Virus record (IMG/VR): IMGVR_UViG_3300011336_000076
Location: 1-60,505 of that record
DNA from: a virus
Lineage: Duplodnaviria; Caudoviricetes
Reading direction: 5' to 3' (one strand)
Length of the DNA: 60,505 bases
Positions 3,231-59,276 of this stretch are shown piece by piece (within the stretch, counting starts at the first letter, position 1; the number at the start of each line of letters is the position of its first letter). Made by a program: the position numbers and the translations under genes. The notes under the pieces are model-generated. The model ran no database searches. It was not told the origin of the DNA and saw only the letters and a program-made list of their open reading frames with translations.

Positions 3231-3646
3231 TAGACAAGATTAAAAGTTTGTGGGGTTCATCAACGTTGGATCGGGATGAGTATGAGAAAGCAATGGCGAA
3301 TATGAGAGCACAAGAGGTGAGACTCCAAATGGATGCCGCAATGATGAACTCTGCGCAGGGTATGCAGAATGCCGCACAACAAAGTGCCCTACATAACCCA
3401 TACATTGTTAAAGATTCAAGGTACAAAAGTGCCGAGGAAACACTGGTTAATACTCTTGCGGATACCCATCGTGCGATGACGCAAATGGCTGAACGTTTGG
3501 CGAAGCAAGAGAGACGTATTGATATGTTGTCAGGCTTCTACACATGGATTACTGAGGTACATCCCGAGATTGCCGCACAACATAAAGCCATGCGTGATCT
3601 GTATGAAGCGGCTAACGCACCACAACCAAAGGAGAGGGAAGCATGA
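3227..3646 (+). CDS. hypothetical protein (paralog 1 of a tandem trio)
   Basis: C-terminal WITEVHPEIAAQHKAMRD. Confidence 0.75.
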   Translation: MIDKIKSLWGSSTLDRDEYEKAMANMRAQEVRLQMDAAMMNSAQGMQNAAQQSALHNPYIVKDSRYKSAEETLVNTLADTHRAMTQMAERLAKQERRIDMLSGFYTWITEVHPEIAAQHKAMRDLYEAANAPQPKEREA

Positions 3647-3891
3647 GTTTTGGAAAAGCGATACCCAAAGCAGAGGGTGATAGCGTCACAGATTCCTACA
3701 AATACAAAGCGGCAAGTAGATATGTCCCACCCCCATTAGAAATCCTAGAAGGCAACAGGAACGTTAACGTAGGAGCATTACTACTACAACTTGAATACAT
3801 CTTGCAACGTACAGTGCCGGACTACGACGAGCTGGTAAAACAATTTAACGCAATCAAAGATATTGAGAGGAGTAACAATGACATACGGTAA
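3643..3891 (+). CDS. hypothetical protein (paralog 2)
   Basis: C-terminal QFNAIKDIERS; AAGGAG RBS. Confidence 0.75.
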   Translation: MSFGKAIPKAEGDSVTDSYKYKAASRYVPPPLEILEGNRNVNVGALLLQLEYILQRTVPDYDELVKQFNAIKDIERSNNDIR

Positions 3892-4125
3892 ACAAGTAGC
3901 GGCAATGCCACCTAATTCATACCAAACTCAAGACAAGATAAGGTCGGTGGCGGTTGACTTGGCTTCAACACTGTCTTCTTACGAGATGGCACTGCGTGAT
4001 CATGCAGTGGCGATTGATGAGATCAGAGACAAGCAAGAGAAACTTGAGGCGTTCATTGATTGGGTAGAAGGCACGTACCCTGAAATCATGGGGCAGTATA
4101 AAGCAATCAAAGATATTGAGAGGAG
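3850..4125 (+). repeat. 23-bp direct repeat GCAATCAAAGATATTGAGAGGAG at 3850-3872 and 4103-4125
   Basis: Two identical copies, each including the RBS of the next gene. Confidence 0.9.
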
Positions 4126-4144
4126 CGCAAATGAGCAAGGTTAA
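3878..4144 (+). CDS. hypothetical protein (paralog 3)
   Basis: C-terminal WVEGTYPEIMGQYKAIKDIERS; GAGGAG RBS before ATG 3878. Confidence 0.75.
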   Translation: MTYGKQVAAMPPNSYQTQDKIRSVAVDLASTLSSYEMALRDHAVAIDEIRDKQEKLEAFIDWVEGTYPEIMGQYKAIKDIERSANEQG

Positions 4145-4640: not shown

Positions 4641-6457
4641 ACCTCATAGTTTTGGATTTCGAGACGTACTACACCACTAAGGACTTGGGGTTCAAAACCC
4701 AAACGACTGAAGAGTATGTACGTGATCCCCGATTCGAGGTGGTCGGGGTTGCTGTCAAGGTAAACAACGAGCCAACACAATGGTGCAGTGATTCCTTGGA
4801 TGAGATCGACCTTTGGTTACACCAATTCGATTGGGACAACAGCATGGTGGTTGCACACAATGCGATGTTTGACATGGCGATATTGAACTGGCACTTTGAT
4901 ATCAGACCAAAAGCTATTGCAGATACTTTGAGCATGGCACGTGCTATCAACGGCATCGAGGTAGGCAACAGTCTCAAGAAGTTGGCACTGCACTATGAAC
5001 TAGGCGTTAAGGGTGAGGAAGTGTTACAGGCCGTTAACCTGCGGAGGCGTGACTTCACAGAGCAACAGCTTGCAGAGTATGGGGCGTATTGTAGAAATGA
5101 CGTTGACCTGACCTACGACTTGTTCCTGACCCTGCTACCTATGTTTCAGAAGGTTGAGTTGAAGCTGATTGACCTGACGATTCGAATGTTCACAGAGCCA
5201 CAGCTCCGCCTAGATGAATCTCTCTTACAGCAACATCTTATAGAGGTGAAGGAACGTAAGAAGAGCCTGCTGGACAGTTGCGGTGCCAACATCGAAGACT
5301 TGATGAGCAATCAAAAGTTTGCCGAAGTCTTGCGTGGGTTAGGTGTCGAGCCGCCCATGAAGATCAGTCTGACTACGGGTAAGGAAGCGTTGGCCTTGGC
5401 TAAGTCTGATGAAGGGTTCAAGGCGTTGGCCGAGCACCCTGATGAGCGCGTACAGACACTTGTTGCGGCACGATTGGGTAACAAGACTACGTTGGAAGAG
5501 ACACGTACTGAGCGTCTCATTGGGATTGCGGGAAGGGGAGAGATACCTGTTCCCCTCTCCTACTACGCCGCCCACACGGGGCGTTGGGGAGGGTCGGACA
5601 AAATCAATTTCCAAAACTTTCCCTCACGTGGCGACAACGCAGGGAAGCTCAAGAAGGCCATCCTTGCACCCGAGGGTCACGTGATCATTGACTGCGATTC
5701 TGCGCAGATCGAGGCGCGGGTACTTGCATGGTTCGCACAACAAGATGATTTGGTGGAGGCATTTAGAAATGGCGAGGACGTATACAAGATCATGGCATCG
5801 GCTATCTACCGCAAGGAAAGAGAAGAGGTCACCCCGTCTGAAAGATTTGTTGGCAAAACCACCATTCTTGGGGCGGGTTATGGCATGGGCGGTGCGAAGT
5901 TCCAAGCGCAACTCAAGACTTTCGGTGTGTCGATCAGTACAGAGGAGTCTGCAAGGATTATCTCTACCTACCGTGGTACCTATCCTAGTATCCCCACCTT
6001 ATGGAAGTCTGGTTCCTCGGCGATTGATGCTATGAGCAAGGGGCGTACTGTTACGTGGGGTAATGGTTGTATCAGCATAGGTGCAGAGGGAATTCTCATG
6101 CCCAACGGGTTGTATCAAAGATACCCAAACTTGCGAAAAGTACGAGACAAAGATGGAAAAGACCAGTATATTTATGATTCACGCAAAGGCGCGGTGAAGC
6201 TATACGGCGGCAAGTTGGCAGAGAACATTTGTCAGGGCTTGGCACGTTGCATCATTGGCGAACAGCTAATCAAGATCAGCAGGAAGTATCGTGTGGTACT
6301 CACTGTTCATGATGCTGTAGCGTGTGTGGCACCAAAAGAAGAAGCCGAAGAGGCTATGGCGTATGTGATGGAGTGCATGCGATTTGTACCGTCATGGGCA
6401 CAAGGCATTCCATTGAACTGCGAGGCAGGGATAGGAGAGAGTTATGGAGACTGTTAA
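4637..6457 (+). CDS. polA: family A DNA polymerase with 3'-5' exonuclease
   Basis: ExoI DFET, AHNAMFD, YCRND; HTGRW; motif A DSAQIEAR; motif B RFVGKTTILGAGYG; motif C VHD. Confidence 0.95.
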   Translation: MNLIVLDFETYYTTKDLGFKTQTTEEYVRDPRFEVVGVAVKVNNEPTQWCSDSLDEIDLWLHQFDWDNSMVVAHNAMFDMAILNWHFDIRPKAIADTLSMARAINGIEVGNSLKKLALHYELGVKGEEVLQAVNLRRRDFTEQQLAEYGAYCRNDVDLTYDLFLTLLPMFQKVELKLIDLTIRMFTEPQLRLDESLLQQHLIEVKERKKSLLDSCGANIEDLMSNQKFAEVLRGLGVEPPMKISLTTGKEALALAKSDEGFKALAEHPDERVQTLVAARLGNKTTLEETRTERLIGIAGRGEIPVPLSYYAAHTGRWGGSDKINFQNFPSRGDNAGKLKKAILAPEGHVIIDCDSAQIEARVLAWFAQQDDLVEAFRNGEDVYKIMASAIYRKEREEVTPSERFVGKTTILGAGYGMGGAKFQAQLKTFGVSISTEESARIISTYRGTYPSIPTLWKSGSSAIDAMSKGRTVTWGNGCISIGAEGILMPNGLYQRYPNLRKVRDKDGKDQYIYDSRKGAVKLYGGKLAENICQGLARCIIGEQLIKISRKYRVVLTVHDAVACVAPKEEAEEAMAYVMECMRFVPSWAQGIPLNCEAGIGESYGDC

Positions 6458-7232
6458 TAAAAGGATTGGTAGGGTATTCAAAGGGCATAGCATACCCTAC
6501 GGTACTCTTGTGGGTGCTAGTAAAGAACTGCGTGAGACGTATTACTACCACGGGTACAAAGAAGATTCGATGTTGCCCGAGTTGCCACACTTACCGCATG
6601 AAGATCGGGAGTGCCATAGTCCCGAAGAAGAGTTGTTCAAGAAAGAATTGGTTGAGCGTGTAGAAGAGGTGCTGAACACGTTGACCCCAAGAGCCAAGAA
6701 GGTAATGTGTTTACGGTATGGGATTGGCCTAACGCACGACTACACACTAGAAGAAATTGGCACTAGGTTTGATGTAACACGTGAGCGGATCAGGCAGATT
6801 GAAATGAAAGCGGTACGTGATTTAAAACATCCGGCGCGGGCAATCAAATTTAGAGAAATGCTTGGGCAACATTTAGCCTCAGACAAGAGAGCGGGTAAAG
6901 AATTACAAGCGCAAGCGGCACAAGTGCAGTGGGCGAAAGAACGTAACGCCGCACAACAAAGAGAAGAGGCACGTGCACAATTTAAAGTTACTGCAAGGCA
7001 AAGAGAAAAACAACGTGAGCAAGAGCTTGAGGAGATGTATAAAGAAGACCTCAGATTACGTGAGAAGTGGGAAGATATAAAACCAATGGTGTCCGACACC
7101 GCTTGGGTAGAACATTTGAAGGTAGAGAACCCTGAGATGTACCAAGAGTTGCGAAACGTAGTGACATACATTTGGGGTTACAACGCAGATAAAGTTTGGG
7201 AAATGTACGCAGAAAAGGAGAAGAGAAAATGA
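6444..7232 (+). CDS. sigma-70 region 4 domain protein
   Basis: LTPRAKKVMCLRYGI...YTLEEIGTRFDVTRERIRQIEMKAVRDLKHP closely follows RpoD region 4. Confidence 0.85.
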   Translation: METVNKRIGRVFKGHSIPYGTLVGASKELRETYYYHGYKEDSMLPELPHLPHEDRECHSPEEELFKKELVERVEEVLNTLTPRAKKVMCLRYGIGLTHDYTLEEIGTRFDVTRERIRQIEMKAVRDLKHPARAIKFREMLGQHLASDKRAGKELQAQAAQVQWAKERNAAQQREEARAQFKVTARQREKQREQELEEMYKEDLRLREKWEDIKPMVSDTAWVEHLKVENPEMYQELRNVVTYIWGYNADKVWEMYAEKEKRK

Positions 7233-11424: not shown

Positions 11425-11452
11425 CCATACACAAAACAAAAAGGAGAGAGCT

Positions 11453-11860
11453 ATGACCGAGACAATATCGGTTGATAAACTCGTCGCCGTCTACATCAAG
11501 ATGCGCGACAAACGTGCCGAACTTTTACGTTCATACGAAGAAGCTGACAGCACGGTAAAGACACAGATGGAAGTTGTGGAGACCAAGCTATTGGACATCT
11601 GCAAGGAGATCGGTGTTGATCGTCTTGGTAGCACTCACGGTACGGTAATGCGTACTGTGAAGACACGCTATTGGACAAGCGACTGGGAATCAATGCACAA
11701 GTTCATCTTGGAAAACAAGATGCCCGAACTGCTTGAACGCCGTATCAGTCAAACCACCATGAAACAACTGTTGGAAGAGAACCCCGAGCTTATGCCCATG
11801 GGTTTGAACACTGACAGCAAATACAGCGTAACTATAAGGAGAACCACAAGTGGAACTTGA
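11453..11860 (+). CDS. conserved phage replication-region protein
   Basis: AAGGAGAG RBS; N-terminal coiled coil, then DWESMHKFI...LLERRIS. Confidence 0.8.
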   Translation: MTETISVDKLVAVYIKMRDKRAELLRSYEEADSTVKTQMEVVETKLLDICKEIGVDRLGSTHGTVMRTVKTRYWTSDWESMHKFILENKMPELLERRISQTTMKQLLEENPELMPMGLNTDSKYSVTIRRTTSGT

Positions 11861-13297: not shown

Positions 13298-16141
13298 ATG
13301 ACAACACGGAACCCCTTTCTCACATCTGTACTTGCCTCTGAAGGTTTGTACTGTGTGGTTGGATTGAAGAAGGGTGCGCCGAGGCAGACTTTTGTAGAAA
13401 CGATTGATGAGATTGATGGAGTCGTAGATGGACTTATCTCGCAGGGTTTTGACGCATACTTTGGTTGCGCTAAATATCTTTTGGAAGATGAAGGTCGCAC
13501 AGCAAAAAACGCAAAGTGGTTTAAGGCTTTTTGGCTTGACCTAGATTGTGGTGAAAACAAACCATACGACACGCAAGCATCCGCATTGGATGCGCTCAGA
13601 ATATTTGTTAAAGCAACAGGGTTACCTCGACCCACTATCATTAACTCAGGACGTGGCATACACGTTTACTGGACGCTGAAGGAGACCATCGGTTACAACG
13701 ATTGGAAACCAACAGCCGAAGCACTGAAGAAATTTTGTGCCTCATACAATCTGCTTGCTGACCCTGCGGTCACAGCGGATGCCGCACGAATACTGCGTAT
13801 ACCCGAGACGTTGAACTTCAAGGACAACCCGCCCAAGCCTGTATCTGTAATGGTCGAGTCGCAGCCGGTAGAGTTCACACGCTTCAAGACGTTGATAGGT
13901 GTAGAAGAAGAGGACGATGAACCACAAGGTTTGTTTGGCTCAGACTCACCACCACGCCGACCAATAGATGCAACGACCCGCGCATTGATGGGTAACAGTG
14001 TGTCCCGCTTTGGGACTATTATGCGCAAGAGTGCCGAGGGCGATGGATGCGCACAACTACTGCGTATCTATAAAGAGCAAGAAACTGTTGAGGAACCGCT
14101 ATGGAGAGCGGGTCTGTCTATCGCCATTAACTGCGAAGACGGTGAGAAAGCGATCCACAAGATCAGCAATCAGCATCCTGAGTACGATCCACAAGAGACG
14201 TTCAACAAGGCACACGCACTACTGGAGAAGCCATACAAGTGCGCTACGTTCTCAAGCATTAACTCTGCACCGTGTAACGACTGCCCACACAAGGGCAAGA
14301 TTACTTCTCCGATTCAGATTGGTTCACGTATTGCCGAAGCCAAGGCAGAAGACAACATCGTTGTCATGCGCAACGCCATACTGGAAGAAGAAGTCACGGT
14401 TGAAATTCCTGACTACCCGTACCCATACTTTCGCGGCAAGAACGGCGGTGTGTACAAACGTGGTTGGGGCAAAGATGAGAAGGGTGAGGATGAGAAAGAT
14501 GAGTTGATCTACGAGTACGACTTCTATGTCGTAAAACGATTGACTGATCCTGACACAGGAGAATCTTTGTGGATGCGTTTACACATGCCCAAGGATGGAA
14601 TCCGTGAATTCTCCGCGCCACTATCAAGCGTTTTATCTAAGGACAAATTGCGGGAAGTTTTGGCATACCAAGGCGTGACTGCATACAACAAGAGATTGGA
14701 TTTACTTATGGGTTACATCACCAAGTGGGTGCAAGAACTTCAGCACCTAACAGAAGCAGAAAAGGCACGTCAACAATTTGGTTGGCATGAAGACGATACC
14801 AAGTTCATCATTGGTAATCGTGAAGTCACAGCATCAGGTGTGAACTACAGCCCCTCATCCAACGCCACTGCGGAGATTGCCACCTACTACACCAAGAAAG
14901 GTACGGTTGCTGAGTGGAAGAAAGTTGCCAACATCTATGCCGCCGCAGGGAATGAGGTACGTGCGTTCACACTCTTTGCAGGGTTTGGCTCGGCTTTATT
15001 TAAGTTTACGAAGCTCAATGGCTCAATCATTCACCTGACAAACAATGGCTCCGGTGTAGGTAAGACAACGATTCAGCTTGCGGTCAACAGCATTTGGGGT
15101 AGACCAGTTGAACCGTTGATGAACCAAGAAGATAAGTATTTGGCGCGTATGCACCGTATCGCAGTGCTTGGCAACCTACCCCCTACCATTGATGAGTTGA
15201 CCAATATGGGAGACGAGGAAGTCAGTGCAATGGCTTACGCTATTACGCACGGGCGAGGCCGTAACCGCATGCAGTCACAGTCTAATGCTGAACGTAGTAA
15301 TTCACTGCGCTGGAATTCGATTGCGATTACATCAGGCAACAAGAGTTTGTACGATCAGTTGTATAACCTCAAAGACTTTCCGGAGGGCGAACTGATGCGG
15401 GTACTGGAGTTTGCAGTTGCCAAGAACGATACCCTGAGTAAGGCCGAGTCTGACTTGATGTTCAACCCCATGTACGAGAACTATGGTGTAGCAGGGGAAA
15501 TCTTCATCCGCTACGTGATTGCTAACTTACCGGAAGTTCAGCGTCTATTGAATGCGATTCAACGCAAGTTTGATAAAGCCGCAGGGTTCACACAACGTGA
15601 ACGCTTTTGGTCTGCGACAGCGGCATGCGCACTGACATCCGGCATCATTGCCAAGAAGTTAGGATTGCACGACATTGACGTATCCGCAGTCTACAAATGG
15701 GCAGTAGAAACTTTAGGCACCATGCGCATTGAAGTTCGCGCCGATAGCATGACACCTTTGAGCCGCATCGGTATGTTCTTGAACGAGAAGAACAACAACA
15801 TGTTGATTGTTAAAAGCACGGTTGATAAACGGGCAGGTTTGTTTGAAGCCCCGATACGAGAACCCCGTGGTGAGTTGATGACCCGCTACGAGCCGGATAC
15901 CAAGATGTTGTTTATCTCCACCAAGGCACTGCGTGAGTGGTGCAGTGAGAACCAAATATCCTATAAGATGGTGTGTGCTGATCTACAGAAGGCTAAGATC
16001 ATCAAAGGTATTGTTAAGAAAAGTATGTCCAAAGGGTCTGATATGACTACACCTTCAGTGTTTGCACTGATGATTGACTGCGCTGTTGCTACTGACCTTG
16101 ATCCGGAAGTAGAAACTATTACCCATGACGATAACGGCTGA
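13298..16141 (+). CDS. primase-helicase (N-terminal primase, DUF927-like region, P-loop ATPase)
   Basis: WLDLD, SGRGIHVYW, RILRIP; Cys cluster; GWH; Walker A GSGVGKTT and Walker B TIDE. Confidence 0.9.
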   Translation: MTTRNPFLTSVLASEGLYCVVGLKKGAPRQTFVETIDEIDGVVDGLISQGFDAYFGCAKYLLEDEGRTAKNAKWFKAFWLDLDCGENKPYDTQASALDALRIFVKATGLPRPTIINSGRGIHVYWTLKETIGYNDWKPTAEALKKFCASYNLLADPAVTADAARILRIPETLNFKDNPPKPVSVMVESQPVEFTRFKTLIGVEEEDDEPQGLFGSDSPPRRPIDATTRALMGNSVSRFGTIMRKSAEGDGCAQLLRIYKEQETVEEPLWRAGLSIAINCEDGEKAIHKISNQHPEYDPQETFNKAHALLEKPYKCATFSSINSAPCNDCPHKGKITSPIQIGSRIAEAKAEDNIVVMRNAILEEEVTVEIPDYPYPYFRGKNGGVYKRGWGKDEKGEDEKDELIYEYDFYVVKRLTDPDTGESLWMRLHMPKDGIREFSAPLSSVLSKDKLREVLAYQGVTAYNKRLDLLMGYITKWVQELQHLTEAEKARQQFGWHEDDTKFIIGNREVTASGVNYSPSSNATAEIATYYTKKGTVAEWKKVANIYAAAGNEVRAFTLFAGFGSALFKFTKLNGSIIHLTNNGSGVGKTTIQLAVNSIWGRPVEPLMNQEDKYLARMHRIAVLGNLPPTIDELTNMGDEEVSAMAYAITHGRGRNRMQSQSNAERSNSLRWNSIAITSGNKSLYDQLYNLKDFPEGELMRVLEFAVAKNDTLSKAESDLMFNPMYENYGVAGEIFIRYVIANLPEVQRLLNAIQRKFDKAAGFTQRERFWSATAACALTSGIIAKKLGLHDIDVSAVYKWAVETLGTMRIEVRADSMTPLSRIGMFLNEKNNNMLIVKSTVDKRAGLFEAPIREPRGELMTRYEPDTKMLFISTKALREWCSENQISYKMVCADLQKAKIIKGIVKKSMSKGSDMTTPSVFALMIDCAVATDLDPEVETITHDDNG

Positions 16142-16328
16142 TACTGTACCAGTTGCTATAGAATGGCATAAGTTTGTAGTGGGTAGCTCCTTCTACATCC
16201 CGTGCCTAGATCGTCAGGGTGTTGCAGATCAAATAGCCGCCTCTGCCAAAGAGCGCGGCATGAAAGTTAAATTCCGTTTTGTTTTGGAAAGAGGCACCCA
16301 AGGAGTGAGATTCTGGCGAATCACTTAA
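16125..16328 (+). CDS. small conserved phage protein
   Basis: W..F.VG.SFYIP...GVRFWRI pattern. Confidence 0.75.
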   Translation: MTITADTVPVAIEWHKFVVGSSFYIPCLDRQGVADQIAASAKERGMKVKFRFVLERGTQGVRFWRIT

Positions 16329-16348
16329 CAATGTGCTAGAGTTCGCCC

Positions 16349-16416
16349 TAGCAACTTGTTACTCTCTCCTTTGGTTGCTATCTCCTTGAACCCCGACTTC
16401 GGTCGGGGTCTTTTTT
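16349..16416 (+). ncRNA. candidate anti-Shine-Dalgarno small RNA / 3'UTR element
   Basis: Hairpin TAGCAAC...GTTGCTA containing CTCTCTCCTTT, a second TCTCCTT motif, then a terminator; TGcTAGAGT extended -10 at 16334-16342. Confidence 0.45.
16389..16416 (+). terminator. rho-independent terminator at the convergence of the two arms
   Basis: ACCCCGAC-TTCG-GTCGGGGT followed by a T run. Confidence 0.9.
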
Positions 16417-19400
16417 AATCACCGTATGCTTCTGCGGCGGCTTGTTTTAAGTAGGGTGCTAACTTACGATCAAGCTGAACACCGTGGTGCATCTCGCGTG
16501 ATATGCGGTCACGTGCTTTCACTGACTGATTGATTGTCTTTTCACTGATACCCATCTCAGGGTATTTAGCACTTAAGTCAAACAACTTCTCACGTGCATC
16601 CATCATGCCATCGACATCACCCTCACGCATTGCCGCATAATATTTCTTCAGTGCGTTCTTCTCAATAGACCTAATTGCTTTGGCCTTTTCAGTCATGTAC
16701 GCATTCTCTTCGTACTGTTTCATCAAGTCAGCAGGAGCAAAGCCAAGCACTTGCATAGCGGCGTTGTATCCGTTCACATCTCCAACTGCATCACCACGTA
16801 AAGTGTTAGCGCCTTCAACCGCATAACGACCACCCTTCAAGATGTTACGGATACCGATAGGTAACATAGCTTCAATGCCACGCTCATACTGGCCCTCGGC
16901 AATCAGGTCTTTACCTCGCAAGATACTGTCAGCAATAGAGTACGGCGCACCAAGCAGAGTCTCCATGAATTGAGACAAGGCACTTGCATCCGCTTTGCTT
17001 CCCTTTTGCTCACGCCACAGCAAGTCAGTCCAACCCACACGATCCGCAATGCTTAGATTGGTAAAGTAGTTGACAGGGCCTTTAAACGCAAAGTCGCCAA
17101 GAAATTCACGCATGACAGTATCAAAGTCATCATCGTCTTTATCTTGGAACATGTTGTATGCCAACTCAGCGACCCAGTACAAGGGCATACCTTTGGCACC
17201 TGCAAACAGTGCAGACATGCCATACACACCCGCGAGTTGTCTACGAGCCGCTTTGATTGCCTCAAGTTGTTCACCAGTTGCACCTTTGATGGGGAGCGAA
17301 CGGTTCATGGTATCAAACAACATGTAGTACATGCTGAATGCAAAACGCTTAAACACCATCAAAACTTTTCCTACGTCACCCTGACCAAGGCTGGGGCCAG
17401 ACAGCGTACTGCCCGCGCCATGAGTGTATTCCACAAGTGCGATAGCTTTATCAATTGCTTTGGCTTGTTTCTCAGCTTCGCTCATCTTAGAGTTTTTAAG
17501 TTTGGCCATCTCCAAATCAAAAGCGGCAACTGCTGTAATTTCACGGTTCATGCGCTCGGCATGGTGGAACATGAAAGAACCTACCAACGTAGTGATACGT
17601 GCAAGTTTGTTTGTGCTGCCATAACCTGATGAATTGTCATTCTCAGAACGTAGTGCGTCACGTGCAGTGGACGTAACCAGCATGCCACGGTCTTTCATGG
17701 CCTCAATAAGACCTTTATATTGAGTGTACTGACCTTTGTTGACCCAGTTCTCAATAGAAGTCATGGCCTTTTGGCTAGATACATCACCAGTCAACTCAGT
17801 CACATTTTTTATGAGGCCACTGCTTGTGTAGAGTTTCATTGCGTTCTTCAACGCCGCATAGGATTCTTTAAACCCATACTCACCACCGAGTTGCGGGAAG
17901 ACAATCAACGGTGTCTGCAAAGTGTTGACCAATGCAGAGGATACGTTACCGGCAAGGTTGTAGTAAAACGCAGAAGAACTTGCAAACTGTGCCCAACCCG
18001 ACAGCGTAGGCTTCATTGCAAACTTTCGGCGATCTTCAAACTCTTTAATGAGTTCGTTGCCGTAGGTATTGGCATCACCCCGTGCAGTGTTGGCCGTTGC
18101 AACCATTTCCTTTACAAGACGTTGTAGTTCAGGGCCATACTGCATCCGGGCCAACTGACGTGCAGTGTTACTGCTAACGTGGTCAAACACATAAGCGGCG
18201 TTGTCAACATAACCACCAATACCAGTACGTTTCTGACGGCTCTTTAGGATGCTGGCTTCAGGCATGGCTTTGACAACAAGTTGTATCAAGTCATCAATAG
18301 CCGTATCCCCAGCGCCGTTGTCTTTCATGATCTTCATGATGTCGGCCAACATAGTGCCAGACGGTACATTACTAGCGGCCAGTTGATCGGCACGTGAGTA
18401 GGCATCAAAGTTTGTAGCACCACTGGCTTCTAATTTTTTACGCGCAAAGTCACGTTCAGCCTCAGATTCAAAGGCTTCTTTTTTGACTTCTTTACCAACG
18501 TTGTACTGCAACCAAAACTGGCCTTCGCGGAACAAAGGCGCGTAGTGGTCAATACGTACACTAGCGAGTTCTTGCAAAATCTTTTGGTAAGCAGATGCGG
18601 CCTTACCTTTATCACCCACCGTAGCCTCGATGTTGCGCTCCAGCGACTTTAAGAACTCTGTGTCAAGAGCTTTGTAGGTGGCAAATAGATCACGGTATAA
18701 CTTCTGGCCATTTGGTGTAAGTTTCTCAAACCGTGCATTGAGTTGTTTCCACTCGGCTTCTTTCTCAGGACTGCCGTCATAGAGTTTTTTGGCTTCTTTA
18801 TAGGGACGCACATCCACAGTCGTAGCGTCATGTACCAAAGTAGACCATGCCTGATACTCAGGGGTCTGTCTAAATTCAGTCAACCGCTTATGCAAGGGGG
18901 ACATGGCTTCAAGCAGTTTTTCTTGATAACCGGCCATTTCCTCAACCGTAGCGGCAAAACGCTCACCTAAATTACCCAAATATTTCTTAGAGACTTCACC
19001 CAAGGCAGACAAATTCAGTGCCTTGTAGTACAGCACACGGCGAATACTATCAATCTTTTCTGCGCCTTTCCAAAACGCGACAGCATTTTCACGGTTCATG
19101 ATAGGTTCTTTGCGGATGATGCCACCTATCTTTGTAAACATCTCTTGCACAACGTTGGGGTTATGCAGGGATTGCGCATACAAAGTTTCACCCTTACGTT
19201 CAACGGGTGGTGGGCTGATGATGTCGTTGAGCATGCGGTCAATCGCATCCAACGCAGTCGTATGTTTAGGAGGCAAGCGTAGCAACTGACGCACAGCATT
19301 AACCAAACGCTCCCAACCAGTGAGCTTCTCACCAGTGGGCTTGAACTGCTTCAACTGATTGCGGAACGCATCATTGCTCCACGCTTCCGCAGCGAACTCT

Positions 19401-22400
19401 TGTATATCCTTCGCACCATAAGTTCCTTCAGTGCCTTTCTTCATTTGATTGAAGAGAGTTGTGACCTGACGGGTAACGGGATGTGATGGGTTGTCCAAAG
19501 TGTGGGACATGGTTGCATGTGAAGACTCATGCAGAATTTCATACTCAGTAGCACCGTCACGTAGATAGATTGTGTTGGTCTTTGGGTCGTACATGGACTT
19601 CTCAGCACCATAAACGAGGTTCACGTTGCCAACCAGTTTAGATAAGTTCTGTGCAAAAAGTTCTGCTGTTTTAGATGAACCACTATCCGCCAGCCCTTGT
19701 AAAGCGCCTACCAAGTTATTGTCAGCAAGCTGTTGAAGAATCACCGGGTGAGCCTGTGTATGTAACGCCGCAAGGTCTGCATCAGCATTGAACCCACTAA
19801 TATCGGTGTCGGCAATGTCATCGAGATCGCTGTATGGGTCTTTCTCAGCCAACTGACGTGCAAGACGTTGCATTTGAGCTTTACGTTTGCCTGCCTCAGT
19901 CTTCGTACCTTTGGCTTCTGCAATCTCTTCTTCTGTAGGGGCGTACTCGCCTTCTGCTTCAGCGGCGGCGGCTTCCTCTTCAACTTGCACTTTGGTGGCT
20001 TTACGCAAAGTGGTTTGAGATTCTTGACGGCGGCGAATAGCTTTTGACCTTTGCTCTTCCTTTGTGTACTGCGCAATCTTTGCGTCCATGAACGCAACGG
20101 CTTCGGGAGACAGATTTGCGCGTACCCATGCCTCGGCGTTTTTAGCGTGGATACCGCCTTGACCTAAGAAAAATGCGGCTTCGGGTTTGGTATGGTACGT
20201 AGGTTCGGGTGTACCGGCAAATGTCCCCGGCTTCGACACACTAGGTAACTTCATTTTGGAGTTACGGTACGCAGTGGGTTGGCGCACTACATCATCGGCA
20301 ATTGCATCAAGCGCCAACTCAGGAGTTACTTTGCCAAAGTAGGCACGGGCATCCTTGGCGACCTGATCCAACTTGTTCTTTAATCCACCCAACTTTTGTT
20401 GGATAGCGGGCAGTTCTGCGGAAAAGTCAGGGCGGTCTAAGACGCTTCGTGCGGTAGTTGTTGCCGCTTGTCTTTGCGCTTCTGCTTGCTGGGTTTGAGT
20501 GGTCGTAGTGCCATCAGTTTTTGCTTTCGATTTTGGTTGTGGTTTTGACTCTTTGGTTAAGTCACTGTAAATAGTAAGTAACTCGGTAAACGCATTGTCG
20601 TTTTTAAGACCCAACAACTTGGCGATTGATTCAACAAATTTATCCCATGCGGTTGTGTTTTCGTAGCGGATACGGGACAACAAGTATTGGAAGTCGGGGT
20701 TAGACAAACCTTCGGCAATAAACTCTTGTGCGCTTGCAATACCATAGGGACTGCGGAAATTCTTGTCTGTCGCCGCCTGTTGTTCTACAACTTCTTTGAC
20801 ATGCTTGTACAGTTTGTTGAGCCGCTCAACTACAGGTTTTTGTTCCTTTGTTGGATTGGCAACGGCGTTCAATGCTTGGGCATGCACAATCTCATGCGCC
20901 AAAACACTTTCATCTTTAGCAAAATATTCTGGTACGCGGATTGTGTTTGTAGCGGCGTCATACTGACCCGCTACACCTTGTTTAATGGCTGAAGCAGTAG
21001 AAGTAAGACGGAGTTTGTCTTCCCCAAGTTGTTGAGTAGCACGTTCAAAAGCGTCTATAAGTGCTTTGAAATCTTCTTTAGTGCGTAGGTCAGTTCCCTC
21101 GGGCAGTCCAAGAGAAGTGAACATGCTGTTGTTGTTCTTAGCAATATCACGCAACCCTAATTTGCTAGGGTATTCTTTACCATCTTGAATTGCAGGGATT
21201 GAAACTCCTGAAATTTCATACGGCAATGTTGCGCCTTCTGGTAATTGCTCAACAGTGGGAGCCAACTCGCGTAACTTATTGAGAGCATCGAGGTGCATCT
21301 TTGCACCGTCAATTGACATCTGGTCTTCAAACGTACTACGGCCTTCGTAGGTCTCACCTGCGGTATCGTCGATTTCAATTTTTGTATCTAACGCTTTAGC
21401 ACGGCGGGCAACTTCTGCAACGGTTGCGTTTTTGCTATTTTCAAGGGCGGTAACTACACCGGCAAAGTCACCGTTCTTAGCGGCTGTTTGAGCAGGGAGA
21501 TTTACGCGACCACGCAACATGCCGGGGTAAGGTTGTACAGCACCAAGCCCTTTACCAAATTCAATTCGTTGTTGACGGTCTGTTAGTGTACGGGGCTGTT
21601 GTCCTTTTCCTCCAGTAGCGTCTGTAGCATTCTGGTCAGTAGAAACATCTCCACCTCCGACAGTTGTTTCATCGGCTGTGGAATTTTTTGTAGCAGTGGA
21701 TTTGCCAGCCATGCCAGCGCCTCCTCCACTTGGGGTGGTGTCAGGTCTTGTAACATCAGGTACTCCAAATGCAAATTGGCGGGTTTGTTCTTGCTGTTTC
21801 TGCTTGGTAGGGGAAAGCGTTTCGGCTTTCATTTCATCACGGGCGGCTTTGACTTCTTCAGGGTCAAAGGTGCTGATGACATCATCGTAGGCGGCAGGGT
21901 CGATGTTGCCCATGAACTCAGGGTTCTCAAGCGTTTGAATAAACTTGCGGCGACCATCAACCGTATCAAGATCAGTGCCCAACAACTGCAAGCCCACTTT
22001 AGATCGGTCAGACACCTTAAGATTTTTCAGGGTGTCAACTGTAACGGGATCACCGGGGGTGTTTGTAGCTACAGGGCCAAACGCAAAGTCACGTGTAGCT
22101 TGCTGTTGATCAGCACGTTGTTGCTCCAATGCGGGACTGTACAAACCACCAGTGCCGGAGGTAGGCGGCACAATAGAGAACGGTGCACCACGTTCACCGT
22201 ATCGCGCTTGGATTATTTCAGCATCAGCCTTCTGTTGCGCTTCCAATGCTTTGGCGCGATCCGTTTCCATCTTATCAATTTCAGCCTGAGTCTCTGCATC
22301 GGGTGTATAACCACCAGCGGGCCGCCTTTGATCCATGCGGGCCATCTCAGATTCCCGTGTGTCACGGAACGCCATAGCCAAATCAGACTCACGTTGTTTA

Positions 22401-23536
22401 CGTGCATTCTCAAGTGCAATGTCGTACTCAGCTTGTTTCTCTGGCGTAAGGGTGCCAGCCGCTTTTTCAGCGTCATACTGGGCTTGCAGTGCCGCTTCAG
22501 CTTCTTTAGTGCCAGCGTAATCTTTCTTGGCGGTCAAGCCTTGGCTTGTGCCGCTGACAGTACCAAACGCACTACCACCGATTGCACCCTTAACAAATGA
22601 TTCTTTATAACGTTGGATGTTCTCCGGGGAGAGCATGCCTTTAGTGCTCCCTGCAACTTGTTCAGCGGCTACATTGATAGCCTCTTGCGCTGCTTCGGTC
22701 AAACCTTCAGACCCCGCAGTTGTAGCGGCTTCTTTGGCAATGTACTTCCACACCTTTGGTGCGGCACCAGATTCTTTGGCCAACTTCTCAATGACCTTCA
22801 TCTTGCCGTAACCGCCAAGTTCACCCAACACTTTAGCCGGAACAATAGCGTCTAAGACAGAAGACAGACCACCTGCTAGGGCGGCAATCCCCGGCTCCAT
22901 CTTGTCAGTTTCTTGGTAGATGCTTTCAAATACTTCAGGTGCGTTTTGTGCAAATGAGCCAAGGTACACCCCACCATACATTGCACGTTTACCTGCAACT
23001 TCACCAGCCTTTTTGGCGGTAGCTTCTGCGGCGGCAAGTCCTGCACGGGATAGCGGGCCAGCTTCTAAAGCGGCACCCATAGCACCACGAGCGGCAACTC
23101 TACTACCCAAAGCACTGGCACCCATACCGGGGATCATTGCAGTCAAAGCCGTTGGGCCAAGTTCACCCAAAGTTTCCGCACCGTACTGCAATGCCTCGTA
23201 TGGGCTTTCAATTTCTGTGTATGACTTGAACTGCGCAGGGTACTTGGCTTGTAACGCTTGGCGTGAGGCATCGGCTTCAGCCATCTGACGTTGTGCATAC
23301 TCATCAAAGCCAAGCGCAGATGCGCCCATGGCGGGGAGGACATCCCCCAAGGCGATACCTGTTTCCCCCATGCCACGCATGAAGCCCTCTTTTAAGAGGG
23401 TGCCAATTCCTACATCTCGCTTTGGTATCTTAAAGTCATACTTTTGCGCAAGAAGGCCAACCTGTTTGTTTAATTCTTCAGACGACAAATTGTCATCGAA
23501 CCGTACTGGGCCAATCTTAGGTAGGGTAATGATCAT
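16415..23536 (-). CDS. large polyvalent internal virion/ejection protein with two zincin-like domains
   Basis: 2373 aa; HEIVH...QEFIAE and HESSH...QEFAAE; YAPLFREG (PLxRFG-like); last gene of the late arm. Confidence 0.8.
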   Translation of the reverse strand: MIITLPKIGPVRFDDNLSSEELNKQVGLLAQKYDFKIPKRDVGIGTLLKEGFMRGMGETGIALGDVLPAMGASALGFDEYAQRQMAEADASRQALQAKYPAQFKSYTEIESPYEALQYGAETLGELGPTALTAMIPGMGASALGSRVAARGAMGAALEAGPLSRAGLAAAEATAKKAGEVAGKRAMYGGVYLGSFAQNAPEVFESIYQETDKMEPGIAALAGGLSSVLDAIVPAKVLGELGGYGKMKVIEKLAKESGAAPKVWKYIAKEAATTAGSEGLTEAAQEAINVAAEQVAGSTKGMLSPENIQRYKESFVKGAIGGSAFGTVSGTSQGLTAKKDYAGTKEAEAALQAQYDAEKAAGTLTPEKQAEYDIALENARKQRESDLAMAFRDTRESEMARMDQRRPAGGYTPDAETQAEIDKMETDRAKALEAQQKADAEIIQARYGERGAPFSIVPPTSGTGGLYSPALEQQRADQQQATRDFAFGPVATNTPGDPVTVDTLKNLKVSDRSKVGLQLLGTDLDTVDGRRKFIQTLENPEFMGNIDPAAYDDVISTFDPEEVKAARDEMKAETLSPTKQKQQEQTRQFAFGVPDVTRPDTTPSGGGAGMAGKSTATKNSTADETTVGGGDVSTDQNATDATGGKGQQPRTLTDRQQRIEFGKGLGAVQPYPGMLRGRVNLPAQTAAKNGDFAGVVTALENSKNATVAEVARRAKALDTKIEIDDTAGETYEGRSTFEDQMSIDGAKMHLDALNKLRELAPTVEQLPEGATLPYEISGVSIPAIQDGKEYPSKLGLRDIAKNNNSMFTSLGLPEGTDLRTKEDFKALIDAFERATQQLGEDKLRLTSTASAIKQGVAGQYDAATNTIRVPEYFAKDESVLAHEIVHAQALNAVANPTKEQKPVVERLNKLYKHVKEVVEQQAATDKNFRSPYGIASAQEFIAEGLSNPDFQYLLSRIRYENTTAWDKFVESIAKLLGLKNDNAFTELLTIYSDLTKESKPQPKSKAKTDGTTTTQTQQAEAQRQAATTTARSVLDRPDFSAELPAIQQKLGGLKNKLDQVAKDARAYFGKVTPELALDAIADDVVRQPTAYRNSKMKLPSVSKPGTFAGTPEPTYHTKPEAAFFLGQGGIHAKNAEAWVRANLSPEAVAFMDAKIAQYTKEEQRSKAIRRRQESQTTLRKATKVQVEEEAAAAEAEGEYAPTEEEIAEAKGTKTEAGKRKAQMQRLARQLAEKDPYSDLDDIADTDISGFNADADLAALHTQAHPVILQQLADNNLVGALQGLADSGSSKTAELFAQNLSKLVGNVNLVYGAEKSMYDPKTNTIYLRDGATEYEILHESSHATMSHTLDNPSHPVTRQVTTLFNQMKKGTEGTYGAKDIQEFAAEAWSNDAFRNQLKQFKPTGEKLTGWERLVNAVRQLLRLPPKHTTALDAIDRMLNDIISPPPVERKGETLYAQSLHNPNVVQEMFTKIGGIIRKEPIMNRENAVAFWKGAEKIDSIRRVLYYKALNLSALGEVSKKYLGNLGERFAATVEEMAGYQEKLLEAMSPLHKRLTEFRQTPEYQAWSTLVHDATTVDVRPYKEAKKLYDGSPEKEAEWKQLNARFEKLTPNGQKLYRDLFATYKALDTEFLKSLERNIEATVGDKGKAASAYQKILQELASVRIDHYAPLFREGQFWLQYNVGKEVKKEAFESEAERDFARKKLEASGATNFDAYSRADQLAASNVPSGTMLADIMKIMKDNGAGDTAIDDLIQLVVKAMPEASILKSRQKRTGIGGYVDNAAYVFDHVSSNTARQLARMQYGPELQRLVKEMVATANTARGDANTYGNELIKEFEDRRKFAMKPTLSGWAQFASSSAFYYNLAGNVSSALVNTLQTPLIVFPQLGGEYGFKESYAALKNAMKLYTSSGLIKNVTELTGDVSSQKAMTSIENWVNKGQYTQYKGLIEAMKDRGMLVTSTARDALRSENDNSSGYGSTNKLARITTLVGSFMFHHAERMNREITAVAAFDLEMAKLKNSKMSEAEKQAKAIDKAIALVEYTHGAGSTLSGPSLGQGDVGKVLMVFKRFAFSMYYMLFDTMNRSLPIKGATGEQLEAIKAARRQLAGVYGMSALFAGAKGMPLYWVAELAYNMFQDKDDDDFDTVMREFLGDFAFKGPVNYFTNLSIADRVGWTDLLWREQKGSKADASALSQFMETLLGAPYSIADSILRGKDLIAEGQYERGIEAMLPIGIRNILKGGRYAVEGANTLRGDAVGDVNGYNAAMQVLGFAPADLMKQYEENAYMTEKAKAIRSIEKNALKKYYAAMREGDVDGMMDAREKLFDLSAKYPEMGISEKTINQSVKARDRISREMHHGVQLDRKLAPYLKQAAAEAYGD

Positions 23537-53682: not shown

Positions 53683-54135
53683 GGGTAGCGGTTTGTGGCT
53701 CCAATTTGGGCGGAGTGTACACGTTTTTTAAAAAATAATATAGGGGGGTGGGGTTTGTTGTTAAAAAAGGTGACGGGGGGTGTTTCTAAAACAACGCTAA
53801 GAAGTGCAGAGTAAAAAACATGATAGGGGTACCCTACAACATCTTGTGGTGTTGTAGTTAGTTGAGTTGGTGGCCACCGGATTGTTTATTTGCACGGTTT
53901 AGATTTTTCGTTGTAATCCTTTGAGCATATTACAGTGCATAGCCCTGCCCCAGACAAGCCGCCCAATCTAGGGGGTGCCCCCTCCCAATTTCCCACTGTG
54001 GGAAAATCAATGGCCCACGTGTCAACTTAGCCCTATCTCGTGCAAGGTGTAACAACTTATGGTGTAATACATTCATGGATCGGGAAAGTGCACTCGATAC
54101 ATACTCTTATTAACTTGCACTGATGAAAGACTCTC

Positions 54136-54654
54136 ATGAGTAATACAAAACTCTCTTATACGGCTCAAGCCGTTTCTATGGCCTCTGATTTGATCGAGGC
54201 TAAAAAGTGCGAAGACAAAGCAACGTCTTTGCGTGAAGGCGTCAATAAGCAAATTATTGGCATGCACAAAGACAATGTTGTCATTGGCCGTTACAGCAAA
54301 GACGGCACCGGTTGTTCTATTGCTACGGCTTGGGTTGACAAACTAGTCCTTGGCGGGTTGTCCAAAAAGACGGCTCAAAATTATTTGAGTCTTCTACGTG
54401 AAGCCGTGAAAACCGGCAAGCCAGTGAAAGACTGGGGCGGCACGAAAGCCGGAGGACGGCAAGCCGCCGCCGGTGCGAAAGGTAGCGCGAAAGGTAAAAA
54501 AGAGTTTGCCGATAAACTGGCAACGTGTTTCCGTGATGCAGAATTTGAAGGGTTTGTAAATGACCTTGAAGCATCATGGGACAATGACGAAATCAAGTCC
54601 TTGCTTGAAGGCATCAAGTCCTACCTTGAAGCATCCGGCTTGAAGATCGACTGA
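54136..54654 (+). CDS. hypothetical early protein, first gene of the + arm
   Basis: 172-aa ORF followed by its own terminator. Confidence 0.8.
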   Translation: MSNTKLSYTAQAVSMASDLIEAKKCEDKATSLREGVNKQIIGMHKDNVVIGRYSKDGTGCSIATAWVDKLVLGGLSKKTAQNYLSLLREAVKTGKPVKDWGGTKAGGRQAAAGAKGSAKGKKEFADKLATCFRDAEFEGFVNDLEASWDNDEIKSLLEGIKSYLEASGLKID

Positions 54655-54665
54655 TCTCACCTCCC

Positions 54666-54697
54666 AAAACCCTCCGAGAAATCGGGGGGTTTTTTTT
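54666..54697 (+). terminator. rho-independent terminator
   Basis: AAAACCCTCCGA-GAAA-TCGGGGGGTTTT plus a T run. Confidence 0.9.
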
Positions 54698-54760
54698 CGC
54701 CCAAAATTTCCCAATGAATACTTTTCCATTACCCCCCAACTTTTCCACGTGGAAAAGTTT

Positions 54761-54943
54761 TGATAACTGTTCCCTCGACGCGGGCCGCAAGACGCGCAAT
54801 ACAATCATCCAGCCAACAAGTTGTCACGTGTTTTTAAAATCAAACACACCACAAGATGTTTGTAGTTTAATTTCTATCTTATTTCCCACAGTGGGAAATA
54901 GTAACAACTTATACTGATAACTGTTCCCTCGATGCGGGCCGCA
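54761..54943 (+). repeat. 29-bp direct repeat TGATAACTGTTCCCTCGA(C/T)GCGGGCCGCA at 54761-54789 and 54915-54943
   Basis: Two copies with one mismatch. Confidence 0.9.
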
Positions 54944-55025
54944 CTGACGCATAGGGAATTCCCCCACGCAATAGCAATTCCCACTGGTTGGAACGTTTTC
55001 CCACTGTGGGAAAATGTAAACGCAG

Positions 55026-55388
55026 TGCGATGTAGTTATGTCTAATGTTTTATTCAATTATGCAAGAAAGTTCTGTGACTACAGAATATTACAAACCCAA
55101 TGAAATCAAGCACTTGCAGAGGTTTTTCCCCTATTATTCTATTATTCTGTAAAAATATATATATGAAGAGACAATTTCAAAAACAACCAAATCTCCCGTT
55201 TTTTCTTTCTCTCACGTGATCTCTTACGCTCTTTCTCTTGTTTCTCTCTTATCTCTCAAAACAACAGAATATTAGAACATTACCCCAAAACCCTCTCGCA
55301 ACCCGCGCCAGTGCTTGCTTTGCTTTATTCCGTGGCTACAGAACTTTGTTGCATAATTGAATAAAACGCTTCCTATCACTACATCACA
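55026..55388. repeat. long imperfect inverted repeat, putative replication origin
   Basis: 55047-55076 and 55338-55367 are reverse complements at 29/30; arms extend ~125 bp around an AT- and pyrimidine-rich centre. Confidence 0.75.
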
Positions 55389-55403
55389 ACACATAGTAGC
55401 AAC

Positions 55404-55432
55404 TTGACAATGGGGTTTCCTTGTGGTAAAGT
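55404..55432 (+). promoter_or_regulatory. sigma-70 promoter
   Basis: TTGACA-17 bp-TAAAGT with TG extension. Confidence 0.75.
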
Positions 55433-56359: not shown

Positions 56360-56414
56360 TTTCATCAACCCCCATCGTTTTCCCACGGTGGGAATTTAAC
56401 CCAAAGGAATCATC

Positions 56415-56771: not shown

Positions 56772-56974
56772 AACAAGCAATCGACAACAAGACCATCGAC
56801 ATGTTCGATGACAAACCCAAGGCAACAAGTTATACGTTCCATGTGATCCTTGAAGATGGCACGACTGTTGAATGGAAAGGTCTGACTATCACCCGCGCCA
56901 AGCGCATGTGTGCGGCAACCGAGACCAACACCCCGAGCAACGTAGCGGCCTTTGGTTTTAGGGAATTCAAATGA
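56768..56974 (+). CDS. hypothetical protein
   Basis: GAGG RBS and ATGA overlap. Confidence 0.65.
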   Translation: MKQAIDNKTIDMFDDKPKATSYTFHVILEDGTTVEWKGLTITRAKRMCAATETNTPSNVAAFGFREFK

Positions 56975-59246: not shown

Positions 59247-59276
59247 TTCCCACTGTGGGAAATCAAGGAGATACCT

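Follow-up and report, generated by a model that had tools for sequence, protein, structure and literature searches.

A predicted anti-ribosome-site small-RNA gene conserved between the convergent arms of an uncultured phage family

Small RNAs (sRNAs) that lie in the 3′ ends of messenger RNAs (mRNAs) and have a promoter of their own, such as DapZ and MicL, are chromosomal and Hfq-dependent in enterobacteria. In phage T4, the protein endoribonuclease RegB cuts the GGAG of Shine-Dalgarno (SD) sites, inactivating a subset of early mRNAs. The c4 RNA, which is cut from a precursor upstream of its target, serves the immunity of a temperate phage. In phages P1 and P7, c4 is a phage RNA acting in trans, with loops complementary to the region around a ribosome-binding site that block translation of an mRNA of the same phage (PMC12197685), and the lambda sRNA LPR1/PreS is described as a phage-encoded, base-pairing RNA of the lytic cycle that regulates host genes and enhances initiation of dnaN translation (bioRxiv 10.1101/2024.10.31.621285). 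The Burkholderia double-hairpin RNAs of Rfam family RF02278 (ncS03, ncS05, ncS27, ncS62) are described as about 57-92 nucleotides (nt) long, with the terminator as second hairpin and CU-rich unpaired stretches complementary to ribosome-binding sites, as often located between convergent genes, and as similar to the NmsRs of Neisseria (PMC4603805, PMC5688073). Here, IMG/VR virus record IMGVR_UViG_3300011336_000076 (Duplodnaviria; Caudoviricetes), called the window below at its full length of 60,505 bp and with an estimated completeness of 96%, was analyzed at the sole gap between its two convergent arms, the 86 nt (16329-16414) from the stop of a 67-amino-acid (67-aa) open reading frame (ORF) to the stop of a 2373-aa gene. 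From comparison of the sequence with its relatives, we conclude that this gap holds a real small-RNA gene of the phage, conserved and so far in no catalogue. Its kind is a known one: it is predicted to encode a base-pairing RNA directed against ribosome sites. The RNA, of ~66 nt and read from the plus strand, probably occludes the ribosome site of an early gene for a 135-aa protein and perhaps other early sites of the GGAGAG type.

RF02278 was the best Rfam match of the window (21.9 bits, expectation value (E) 0.009 in a search of 111 nt) and of one relative, L026 (28.6 bits), with the gathering score of 50 reached by neither. The U-UCUCC motif and the terminator align with the model, and the matching part is the second of the two seeds of the predicted RNA (seed 2, Table 1). 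Seven other relatives searched with RF02278 had no match at E <= 0.5, and Rfam at gathering thresholds gave 0 matches over the whole window. As in RF02278, the predicted short form is a hairpin (hairpin B) plus a terminator, in 26 of 27 distinct variants, with CTCC in all 27 and with exact complements of ribosome sites. Unlike RF02278, the central hairpin of the model is deleted in the window's alignment, seed 1 lies in the loop of the 5′ hairpin and not at a free 5′ end, the RNA is phage-encoded with a phage gene as its co-varying target, and the element is single-copy in a virus record, whereas RF02278 RNAs are chromosomal, from Betaproteobacteria, with several copies per genome. In its predicted mode of action the element resembles the betaproteobacterial double-hairpin sRNAs, but it does not belong to RF02278.

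Closest in logic to the proposed RNA is c4 (Rfam C4, RF01695), a phage RNA that masks a ribosome site of its own phage. C4 was absent among the 16 Rfam matches up to E = 10 over 16250-16480 and among the gathering-level matches, and unlike c4 the RNA here would sit at the 3′ end of an operon with a promoter-like box and a terminator of its own. With the DapZ/MicL class it has in common a promoter at or in the end of the upstream coding sequence, use of the mRNA's terminator, and a seed upstream of the terminator hairpin; to our knowledge, a promoter box inside a covarying hairpin of the long transcript is undescribed for sRNAs of that type. The likeness to RegB is one of function only, since RegB cuts whereas the RNA here is proposed to mask, and LPR1/PreS as described differs in having no anti-SD design and no sequence relation. 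The literature on phage-encoded sRNAs, anti-SD pairing and early genes did not yield this design by title or abstract, and it may still be in print.

Relatives were collected from IMG/VR by a scan with the primase-helicase, which recovered 73 related loci with amino-acid identities of 54-99%. When 37 of the 73 were aligned, the gap proved better conserved than the adjoining genes. Mean pairwise identity is 0.883 in the core at 16332-16355, versus 0.714 at the end of the 67-aa ORF and 0.566 at the end of the 2373-aa gene. A covariance model, R1, was built from 26 variants and run over 97 loci. The module was found at the same junction in 43 of them, all from one uncultured phage family, as 42 full-length matches at 73.8-106.9 bits and 1 truncated match, with the other 6 matches at <= 21.2 bits; the 43 loci hold 27 distinct module sequences. 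Conservation at the arm junction in relatives, which the first-pass annotation of this DNA had proposed as a check on its candidate small RNA, was found. Outside the family, 17 bacterial-genome loci matching a 17-base exact pattern were scored with R1 and none is the element (the best, at 20.1 bits and partial, is among the 6 weak matches above); L084, one of 32 viral matches to the pattern, was set aside as a chance match.

Among the 27 variants, TG, TA, A, G and T of the box TGnTAnAGT are identical throughout, with C, T or A at the n after TG. CTCC occurs at least once in 27 of 27 and at least twice in 24 of these, pyrimidines make up 74% of the single-stranded region, and GTTGCT, which pairs solely in hairpin B, is near-invariant. 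By eye, most variants keep seed 2, which L041 and L017 have lost. The sequence downstream of the box is unrelated in three distant groups (L043, L045 and L048), and a box is still followed, after a few bases, by a hairpin, a stretch rich in pyrimidines and a terminator; the boxes read TGTGaTACATT (L045), TGTGgTAGATT (L048) and cGTGgTACATT (L043). The arrangement in L043 persists despite an extra upstream gene. This gene lies between the homologue of the 67-aa ORF and the RNA module (L043 5390-5870), and box, hairpin, CU stretch and terminator remain one block.

The target assignment was tested by pairing the seed of each locus holding the element, in comparison with the seeds of the other loci, with the start regions of the 135-aa gene and of five neighbours. 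For the 135-aa gene, which lies between the SNF2 helicase and helix-turn-helix (HTH) genes and recurs among the best sites in the window and in the related genomes G001 and G003, cognate pairs gave -22.05 kcal/mol versus -19.05 kcal/mol for non-cognate pairs (20 distinct pairs; equalled by 0 of 5000 permutations; the cognate having a median rank of 3 of 20). The controls, namely the HTH, 293-aa, 82-aa and primase genes and the 67-aa ORF, showed no cognate advantage (p = 0.37-0.59). The longest Watson-Crick match was 9.5 nt for cognate and 8.38 nt for non-cognate pairs (equalled by 0 of 5000 permutations), and the advantage persisted without the first 8 seed bases (0 of 5000) and when the target window was narrowed (p = 0.0004). 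Independent drift of seed and target would leave cognate pairs without an advantage, and the controls have the same phylogeny.

The individual pairs show how seed and start region change together. In the window, seed CUCUCUCCUUU faces start region AAAGGAGAGAG; the corresponding pairs are UCUCCUGUGGUU and AACCACAGGAGA in L012, CUCUCCUGUU and AACAGGAGAG in L044, UCCUCUCCUUC and GAAGGAGAGGA in L018, and GCUCUCUCCU and AGGAGAGAGC in L015. Two gapped pairings were read by eye and have exact cores of 9 nt: seed GUCACUCUC(U)CUUUUUG with start region CAAAAAG-GAGAGUGAC in L011, and seed UCUCC-UCUCUCUGU with start region ACAGAGAGA(A)GGAGA in L017. L011 has a single CTCC, yet pairs over 9+7 nt with its own 135-aa gene. 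In L045, GGAG and CUCC have been lost together, the site now being AAGGAAA, and RNA UUUCCUUUGU retains a 10-nt match to target ACAAAGGAAA. In L048, a duplex of 15 bp with 2 G-U pairs covers the SD site, the spacer and the AUG. For the 135-aa gene, then, the seed is complementary to the start of the target and this complementarity is kept through compensatory change.

From its 5′ end, the predicted RNA consists of a hairpin with a loop rich in pyrimidines, the second CU motif in a single-stranded stretch, and the terminator hairpin followed by a U tail (Table 1). At 16390-16416 a G+C-rich hairpin, a directly adjoining U tract and helix covariation were all found, as in an intrinsic terminator; the U tract and the 2373-aa gene's stop codon overlap. 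Two further hairpins, A and B, share CTAGCAAC and are mutually exclusive. Hairpin B is the minimum-energy fold of 16329-16418. When a dozen upstream bases are included (16319-16418), hairpin A is the minimum-energy fold (z = -3.97) and leaves ~28 pyrimidine-rich bases single-stranded ahead of the terminator; the stop codon of the 67-aa ORF supplies its first base pair. In folds with the upstream sequence, hairpin A is the minimum-energy structure in 22 of the 27 variants and hairpin B in 5, and in folds begun 7 nt past the -10-like box hairpin B stands at the extreme 5′ end in 26. The first-pass annotation had described the TGcTAGAGT box, a 7-bp hairpin and the terminator, all of which were recovered in place; its picture of a single hairpin was incomplete, the longer and exclusive hairpin A having been missed. 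ARAGORN found 0 transfer RNA (tRNA) or transfer-messenger RNA genes and no cloverleaf in the window, and a T-loop or tRNA-like reading of GAGTTCGCC was ruled out by this result and by a misfit of register.

Covariation was scored in an alignment of the 27 sequences fitted to the structure of the model, a procedure that favours that structure; a permutation of the flanks forming the outer stem of hairpin A is free of this bias. In the permutation, cognate flanks gave -5.8 kcal/mol versus -2.55 kcal/mol for non-cognate flanks, with 0 of 10000 permutations as good. Four of the six outer-stem pairs have changed on both sides, and re-paired stems in relatives read, by eye, TAACAC/GTGTTA, TGACAG/TTGTCA, TAACGG/TCGTTG, GATC/GATC and GACCA/TGGTC. 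For hairpin A and the terminator together, 88.5% of cells are paired versus 80.9% in shuffles, and 9 pairs have changed on both sides versus 4.6 expected, values reached by 0 of 500 shuffles in each case; slid controls gave 25-46% paired. The terminator has 96.3% of its cells paired, and in 5 of its 8 pairs both sides have changed. Hairpin B has 93.7% of cells paired and is mostly invariant, with 2 of 7 pairs double-changed in one cell each, both belonging by eye to L019 (GGCAAC/GTTGCC). Because of this covariation, hairpin A is better supported than hairpin B.

Within the window, three exact reverse-complement matches between the module and early-gene ribosome sites (14, 11 and 11 nt; Table 1) had been reported by the first-pass annotation, and all three are present. 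For an estimate of chance, 500 dinucleotide-preserving shuffles of 16329-16389 were compared with the remainder of the window. In 51% of shuffles some complementary match reached >= 11 nt, so that each 11-nt match alone is unremarkable; one of >= 14 nt appeared in 1%, and the observed count of six 11-mer matches, four of them within the 14-mer, was reached in 1.4%. AAGGAG is used by many genes in both arms, and since any CTCC-bearing sequence matches some AAGGAG ribosome site, the within-genome matches do not carry the case. The earlier caveat that some late genes also have AAGGAG is correct, and they pair less well.

Comparison with relatives sorts these matches. The most striking of them, at gene 3643, concerns a target gene missing from four of five related genomes: the stretch 3300-3900 (601 nt) has a counterpart in only one of the five, limited to 34 nt that cover the ribosome site and the first codons. 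The match to the metallopeptidase/von Willebrand factor A (vWA)-like gene involves another seed in relatives: its orthologues in G001, G003 and G005 carry a start region of the GGAGAGAG type that fits seed 1 instead. Overall, the proposal of a small RNA antisense to the ribosome sites of the phage's own early genes stands in the conservation of the module and in the co-variation of its seed with 11453, and is weakened by the 3643 and vWA matches and by the bias found in G005, given below.

Pairing across the whole window was scored with a 35-nt seed region against 86 predicted start regions. The five best sites averaged -26.7 kcal/mol versus -21.0 kcal/mol in composition-matched shuffles, 1 of 300 of which reached this value, and the difference between replication-arm and structural genes was -2.92 kcal/mol versus -0.49 +/- 0.91 in shuffles, reached by 0 of 300. 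By eye, early sites tend to GGAGA(G) and late sites to GGAGC/T. With their own seeds, the complete relatives G001 and G003 showed the arm bias at levels reached by 0 of 100 and 3 of 100 shuffles. The best site in G001 is a 19/20-nt complement (counted by eye) of its small-RNA loop at the start of an ATPase gene; the window orthologue of that gene (58164) is without such a complement.

Several of the genes at or near these sites have features of their own. The ATPase (phrog_1297) and the metallopeptidase/vWA-like protein (DUF2201_N + DUF2201) form an early-arm pair at 58164-60473 on the plus strand. Gene 6444 (6444-7232, plus strand) encodes a 262-aa protein matching the RNA polymerase sigma-factor family phrog_351 (E 1.7e-16), which may be the switch to late transcription, and its start region AGGAGAGAG is among the best predicted small-RNA partners in the window (-24.4 kcal/mol). 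Genes 3643 and 3878 (within 3643-4144, plus strand) are paralogous, with 44% identity over 32 aa, and genes 3878 and 4131 have an identical 20-nt start region, ATCAAAGATATTGAGAGGAG, which suggests local duplication in a mosaic early region absent from close relatives. Pairing of seed 2 in cis with the SD-like CAAGGAG in the 67-aa ORF (16299-16305) was rejected, as by eye the glycine codon there wobbles among GGA, GGG, GGC and GGT and is not matched by the seed.

From these elements the following course of events is proposed. Host RNA polymerase would start ~7 nt past TGTGcTAGAGT, at ~16350, and stop at the intrinsic terminator, at ~16416. The resulting RNA of ~66 nt would consist of hairpin B, with a 16-nt loop displaying CUCUCUCCUUU, the single-stranded UAUCUCCUUGA, and the terminator hairpin with its U tail. 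The same sequence would also form the 3′ end of the replication-arm mRNA, where hairpin A would arise instead and hide part of the seed, so that the short RNA alone would be fully active. The short RNA would pair with the SD and start region of the 11453 mRNA, blocking ribosome access, and would act more loosely on other GGAGAG-type early genes, for example 3643, 6444 and 59277; build-up of this stable, terminator-ended RNA would lead to a delayed shut-off of those genes. Transcription from an own promoter, the ends of the RNA, repression as the outcome, its timing and the involvement of any chaperone are what we infer. We lean towards an own promoter for the small RNA, a reading drawn from the box and its conservation; release of the same RNA from the mRNA 3′ end by processing is possible and compatible with it. 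A fuller version is offered tentatively: the arm junction of a widespread family of uncultured freshwater phages could be a two-state riboregulator, in which hairpin A buries the promoter box and part of the seed, hairpin B of the short RNA displays the seed, and the short RNA is a dedicated, co-evolving silencer of the DUF7307-like 135-aa gene and of other GGAGAG-type early sites.

A number of observations weigh against this account of a plus-strand RNA that occludes the 135-aa gene. By raw energy, the 11453 start region is only about the 49th plus-strand duplex site in the window; the site of the 135-aa gene ranks 12th in L045, and in L048 it is first by 0.1 kcal/mol only. Because 11453 is not the best raw-energy site, several early genes may be hit, with the 135-aa gene as the conserved core target. 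In G005 the arm bias is weak (reached by 23 of 100 shuffles), and under a second gene calling Mann-Whitney tests of the bias were non-significant in three of four genomes, being significant only in G003. One of 20 control tests in the seed comparison reached p = 0.004 (primase, Watson-Crick plus G-U). The sequences are related, so that the permutation p-values overstate the number of independent events, our own count of matched changes specific to a lineage being ~6-8. RNA libraries contributed assembled contigs only, from 4 metatranscriptome runs, in which no ends, strand or level are readable and gaps in coverage carry no information; one contig of 1206 nt, from a ~94%-identical relative, spans the element and may reflect DNA carry-over, two others end at 16250 and 16295, and one run yielded no contig.

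Part of this evidence could be read as the work of a general anti-SD RNA that binds many GGAG sites, or mimics the 3′ tail of 16S ribosomal RNA, and damps or re-programs translation globally, a mode of action ascribed to the betaproteobacterial 'toxic' double-hairpin sRNAs. CTCC in all 27 variants fits such an RNA, as do the several unrelated early genes among the best sites per genome, which differ between genomes (the ATPase gene and the 135-aa gene at the top in G001; 3643, 3878 and 6444 in the window). The best Rfam match, RF02278, points the same way, its Burkholderia members being described as CU-rich and over-expression of ncS27 as slowing growth (PMC5688073). For a general anti-SD RNA the flanking bases need not track the start region of one gene, yet they do; L045 replaces the CUCC core together with the GGAG of its target, L011 with its one CTCC keeps its pairing with its own 135-aa gene, and the late genes, which also use AAGGAG, pair less well. 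We hold this explanation to be unlikely. Action in cis only, as a 3′-end element that stabilizes or terminates the replication-arm mRNA and insulates the arms, with the box conserved as the tip of a hairpin, is doubtful to a somewhat greater degree. It would fit the covariation of hairpin A, its start precisely at the stop codon and its place as the minimum-energy fold of most variants when upstream sequence is included, and an element that fills the entire intergenic gap beside the only strong terminator. It would also fit the box itself, which is without a good -35 (TGGCGA at 16314-16319), is not called by a consensus promoter scan and sits inside the covarying hairpin A, so that its conservation may be partly structural, all of which count against an own promoter. 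Such an element leaves unexplained the near-invariant GTTGCT, the box in L043, L045 and L048, the conserved CTCC motifs, and a seed that co-varies with a site lying 4.9 kb upstream. It also leaves unexplained the T and A of the -10, which the L019/L017/L025 clade retains although their hairpin partners have changed, so that they are unpaired. Long-range cis pairing within one mRNA would still amount to antisense occlusion of that ribosome site.

The remaining reading places the function on the minus strand or in the DNA, as an SD-like decoy in read-through late transcripts, a tiny minus-strand ORF, or two binding sites (the similar sequences at 11440 and 16362) for one phage protein with which they co-evolve, and we think it very improbable. 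The minus strand has the stronger fold (z = -4.96 versus -2.62 for the short plus-strand stretch), and because it folds at least as well as the plus strand, folding energy does not decide the strand. The T run after the terminator hairpin is on the plus strand only, so late read-through is possible; the complement of L048 reads, by eye, an SD, 5 nt and ATG followed by a 16-codon frame; and a shared protein operator would also make two similar DNA sites co-vary. Against an ORF, a 1-nt CC/CCC indel shifts the frame among close relatives, by which a minus-strand mini-ORF was excluded, and in the window a suitably spaced start codon is absent. Both the promoter-like box and the T run belong to the plus strand, and wobble pairs lean the same way (36 G-U versus 23 A-C cells), the weakness of this lean being a further point against a plus-strand RNA. 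Helix covariation with free change of sequence is typical of RNA and not of a protein operator.

Table 1. Positions of the module, its candidate targets and the adjoining genes in the window
Feature	Positions	Strand	Remarks
14-nt complement at the ribosome site of gene 3643, window-specific candidate target	3623..3636	+	exact reverse complement of 16364-16377, 7 nt before the ATG at 3643; best window duplex, -31.7 kcal/mol
Start region of the 135-aa early gene, proposed conserved target	11438..11458	+	AAAAAGGAGAGAGCTATGACC; 11-nt complement to seed 1
135-aa early gene	11453..11860	+	phrog_13900, E 1.1e-20
DUF927 primase-helicase	13298-16141	+	plus arm
67-aa ORF, final gene of the replication arm	16125..16328	+	coding sequence kept in relatives
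Hairpin A	16326..16361	+	outer stem TAACAA/TTGTTA, 2x2 internal loop, inner stem TGCTAG/CTAGCA, loop AGTTCGCC
Promoter-like extended -10 box TGTGcTAGAGT (TGn + TAGAGT)	16332..16342	+	TGCTAGAGT at 16334-16342, TG before
Hairpin B, TAGCAAC (16349-16355)/GTTGCTA (16374-16380), 7 bp	16349..16380	+	16-nt loop displays seed 1
Predicted primary small RNA, ~66 nt	16350..16416	+	start placed 7-8 nt past the -10, end placed by the terminator
Seed 1, CTCTCTCCTTT, anti-SD plus flanks	16362..16372	+	exact reverse complement of 11440-11450, before the ATG at 11453
Seed 2, TATCTCCTTGA, unpaired, flanked by hairpin B and the terminator	16379..16389	+	exact reverse complement of 59263-59273, before the ATG at 59277
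Intrinsic terminator, ACCCCGAC-TTCG-GTCGGGGT then CTTTTTT	16390..16416	+	hairpin 16390-16409, 8 bp, 6 G-C
2373-aa gene, LPD39 domain, final gene of the structural arm	16415..23536	-	convergent
Ribosome site of the metallopeptidase/vWA-like gene (59277-60473), complementary to seed 2 over 11 nt	59263..59273	+	exact match

The protein encoded by the proposed target belongs to a large phage family, with 1285 relatives at E <= 0.001, and its neighbours in the ESM-Atlas partly carry DUF7307. An AlphaFold model built from 63 sequences (predicted local distance difference test 89) has a 47-residue helix followed by a small alpha/beta domain. Foldseek searches of the PDB with this model gave no match at E <= 0.001, and a wide search with VIA-align was uninformative, matching the long N-terminal helix alone (Z <= 6.0). 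Pfam gave only a sub-threshold hint of similarity to Mu-Gam/Gp157 (E 0.088).

The record is organized as two convergent arms. The plus-strand arm runs from ~54136 across the record ends to 16328 and holds genes of replication and regulation, including those for a family-A DNA polymerase, an SNF2 helicase, an exonuclease, a sigma-factor-like protein and an HTH protein; family searches with its final product, the 67-aa ORF, gave no match. The minus-strand arm runs from 53682 down to 16415 and encodes the large terminase, portal, major head and tail-fibre proteins and the 2373-aa protein, in which the LPD39 'large polyvalent protein' domain is accompanied by a weak similarity to metallopeptidase toxins. 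As the minus strand is without a T run after the shared terminator hairpin, late transcripts may run on, antisense to the small RNA. Megablast of 15000-18000 against GenBank phages gave no match. The nearest phages by tblastn with the primase-helicase were Pseudomonas phage Rollin (31%) and Rhizobium phages (24%); in Rollin, the nearest cultured phage, the convergent junction consists of overlapping genes and the element is absent. A primase-based scan of bacterial genome contigs gave no relatives and hence no clue to the host. DNA of the window, whole or partial, is present in riverine, lake and drinking-water metagenomes, which fits a freshwater phage, and in small runs of one coded organism.

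Two textbook sigma-70 promoters on the plus strand, at 55404-55432 and 57055-57093, read TTGACA-17-TAAAGT and TTGACA-17-TATAGT, both with a TGn extension, and indicate that the early genes are read by host polymerase; their -10 is of the same TGnTAnAGT class as the box of the module. In the leftmost early region, a 13-nt palindrome, TCCCAC(T/A/G)GTGGGA, occurs in 8 copies within 53991-59260 (at 53991, 54884, 54999, 55539, 56381, 57132, 58078 and 59248), versus ~0.05 expected, mostly just upstream of gene starts. At these places relatives have palindromes of other sequence, such as TTCATATGATATGAA in G005. The palindrome may act as an operator, or as a hairpin in RNA, and co-evolve with its regulator. 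A large non-coding region at 54920-55600 contains a 60-nt CT-rich tract on the plus strand (~55196-55260) flanked by a long inverted repeat (~55044-55090 and ~55335-55375) and could be a replication origin or a second non-coding RNA.

Very few of the known regulatory RNAs come from non-model phages and fewest from uncultured environmental ones, those known having been found experimentally in a handful of hosts. Here, a small-RNA gene together with a specific target is proposed from comparative genomics alone, with computational evidence for the target that is unusually good. For annotators, the locus indicates that short gaps between convergent phage arms can hold genes besides terminators. 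The 27 natural variants supply seed and target pairs from which rules of specificity may be drawn and, if the pairing is true, would form a ready-made orthogonal set of sRNAs and ribosome sites. If confirmed, the element would provide phage counterparts of the betaproteobacterial CU-rich anti-SD sRNAs and a means by which a phage silences one of its own early genes with RNA. Should the two-state reading also be true, early genes in this family would be shut off by an antisense RNA, the role of RegB in T4 being performed by RNA.

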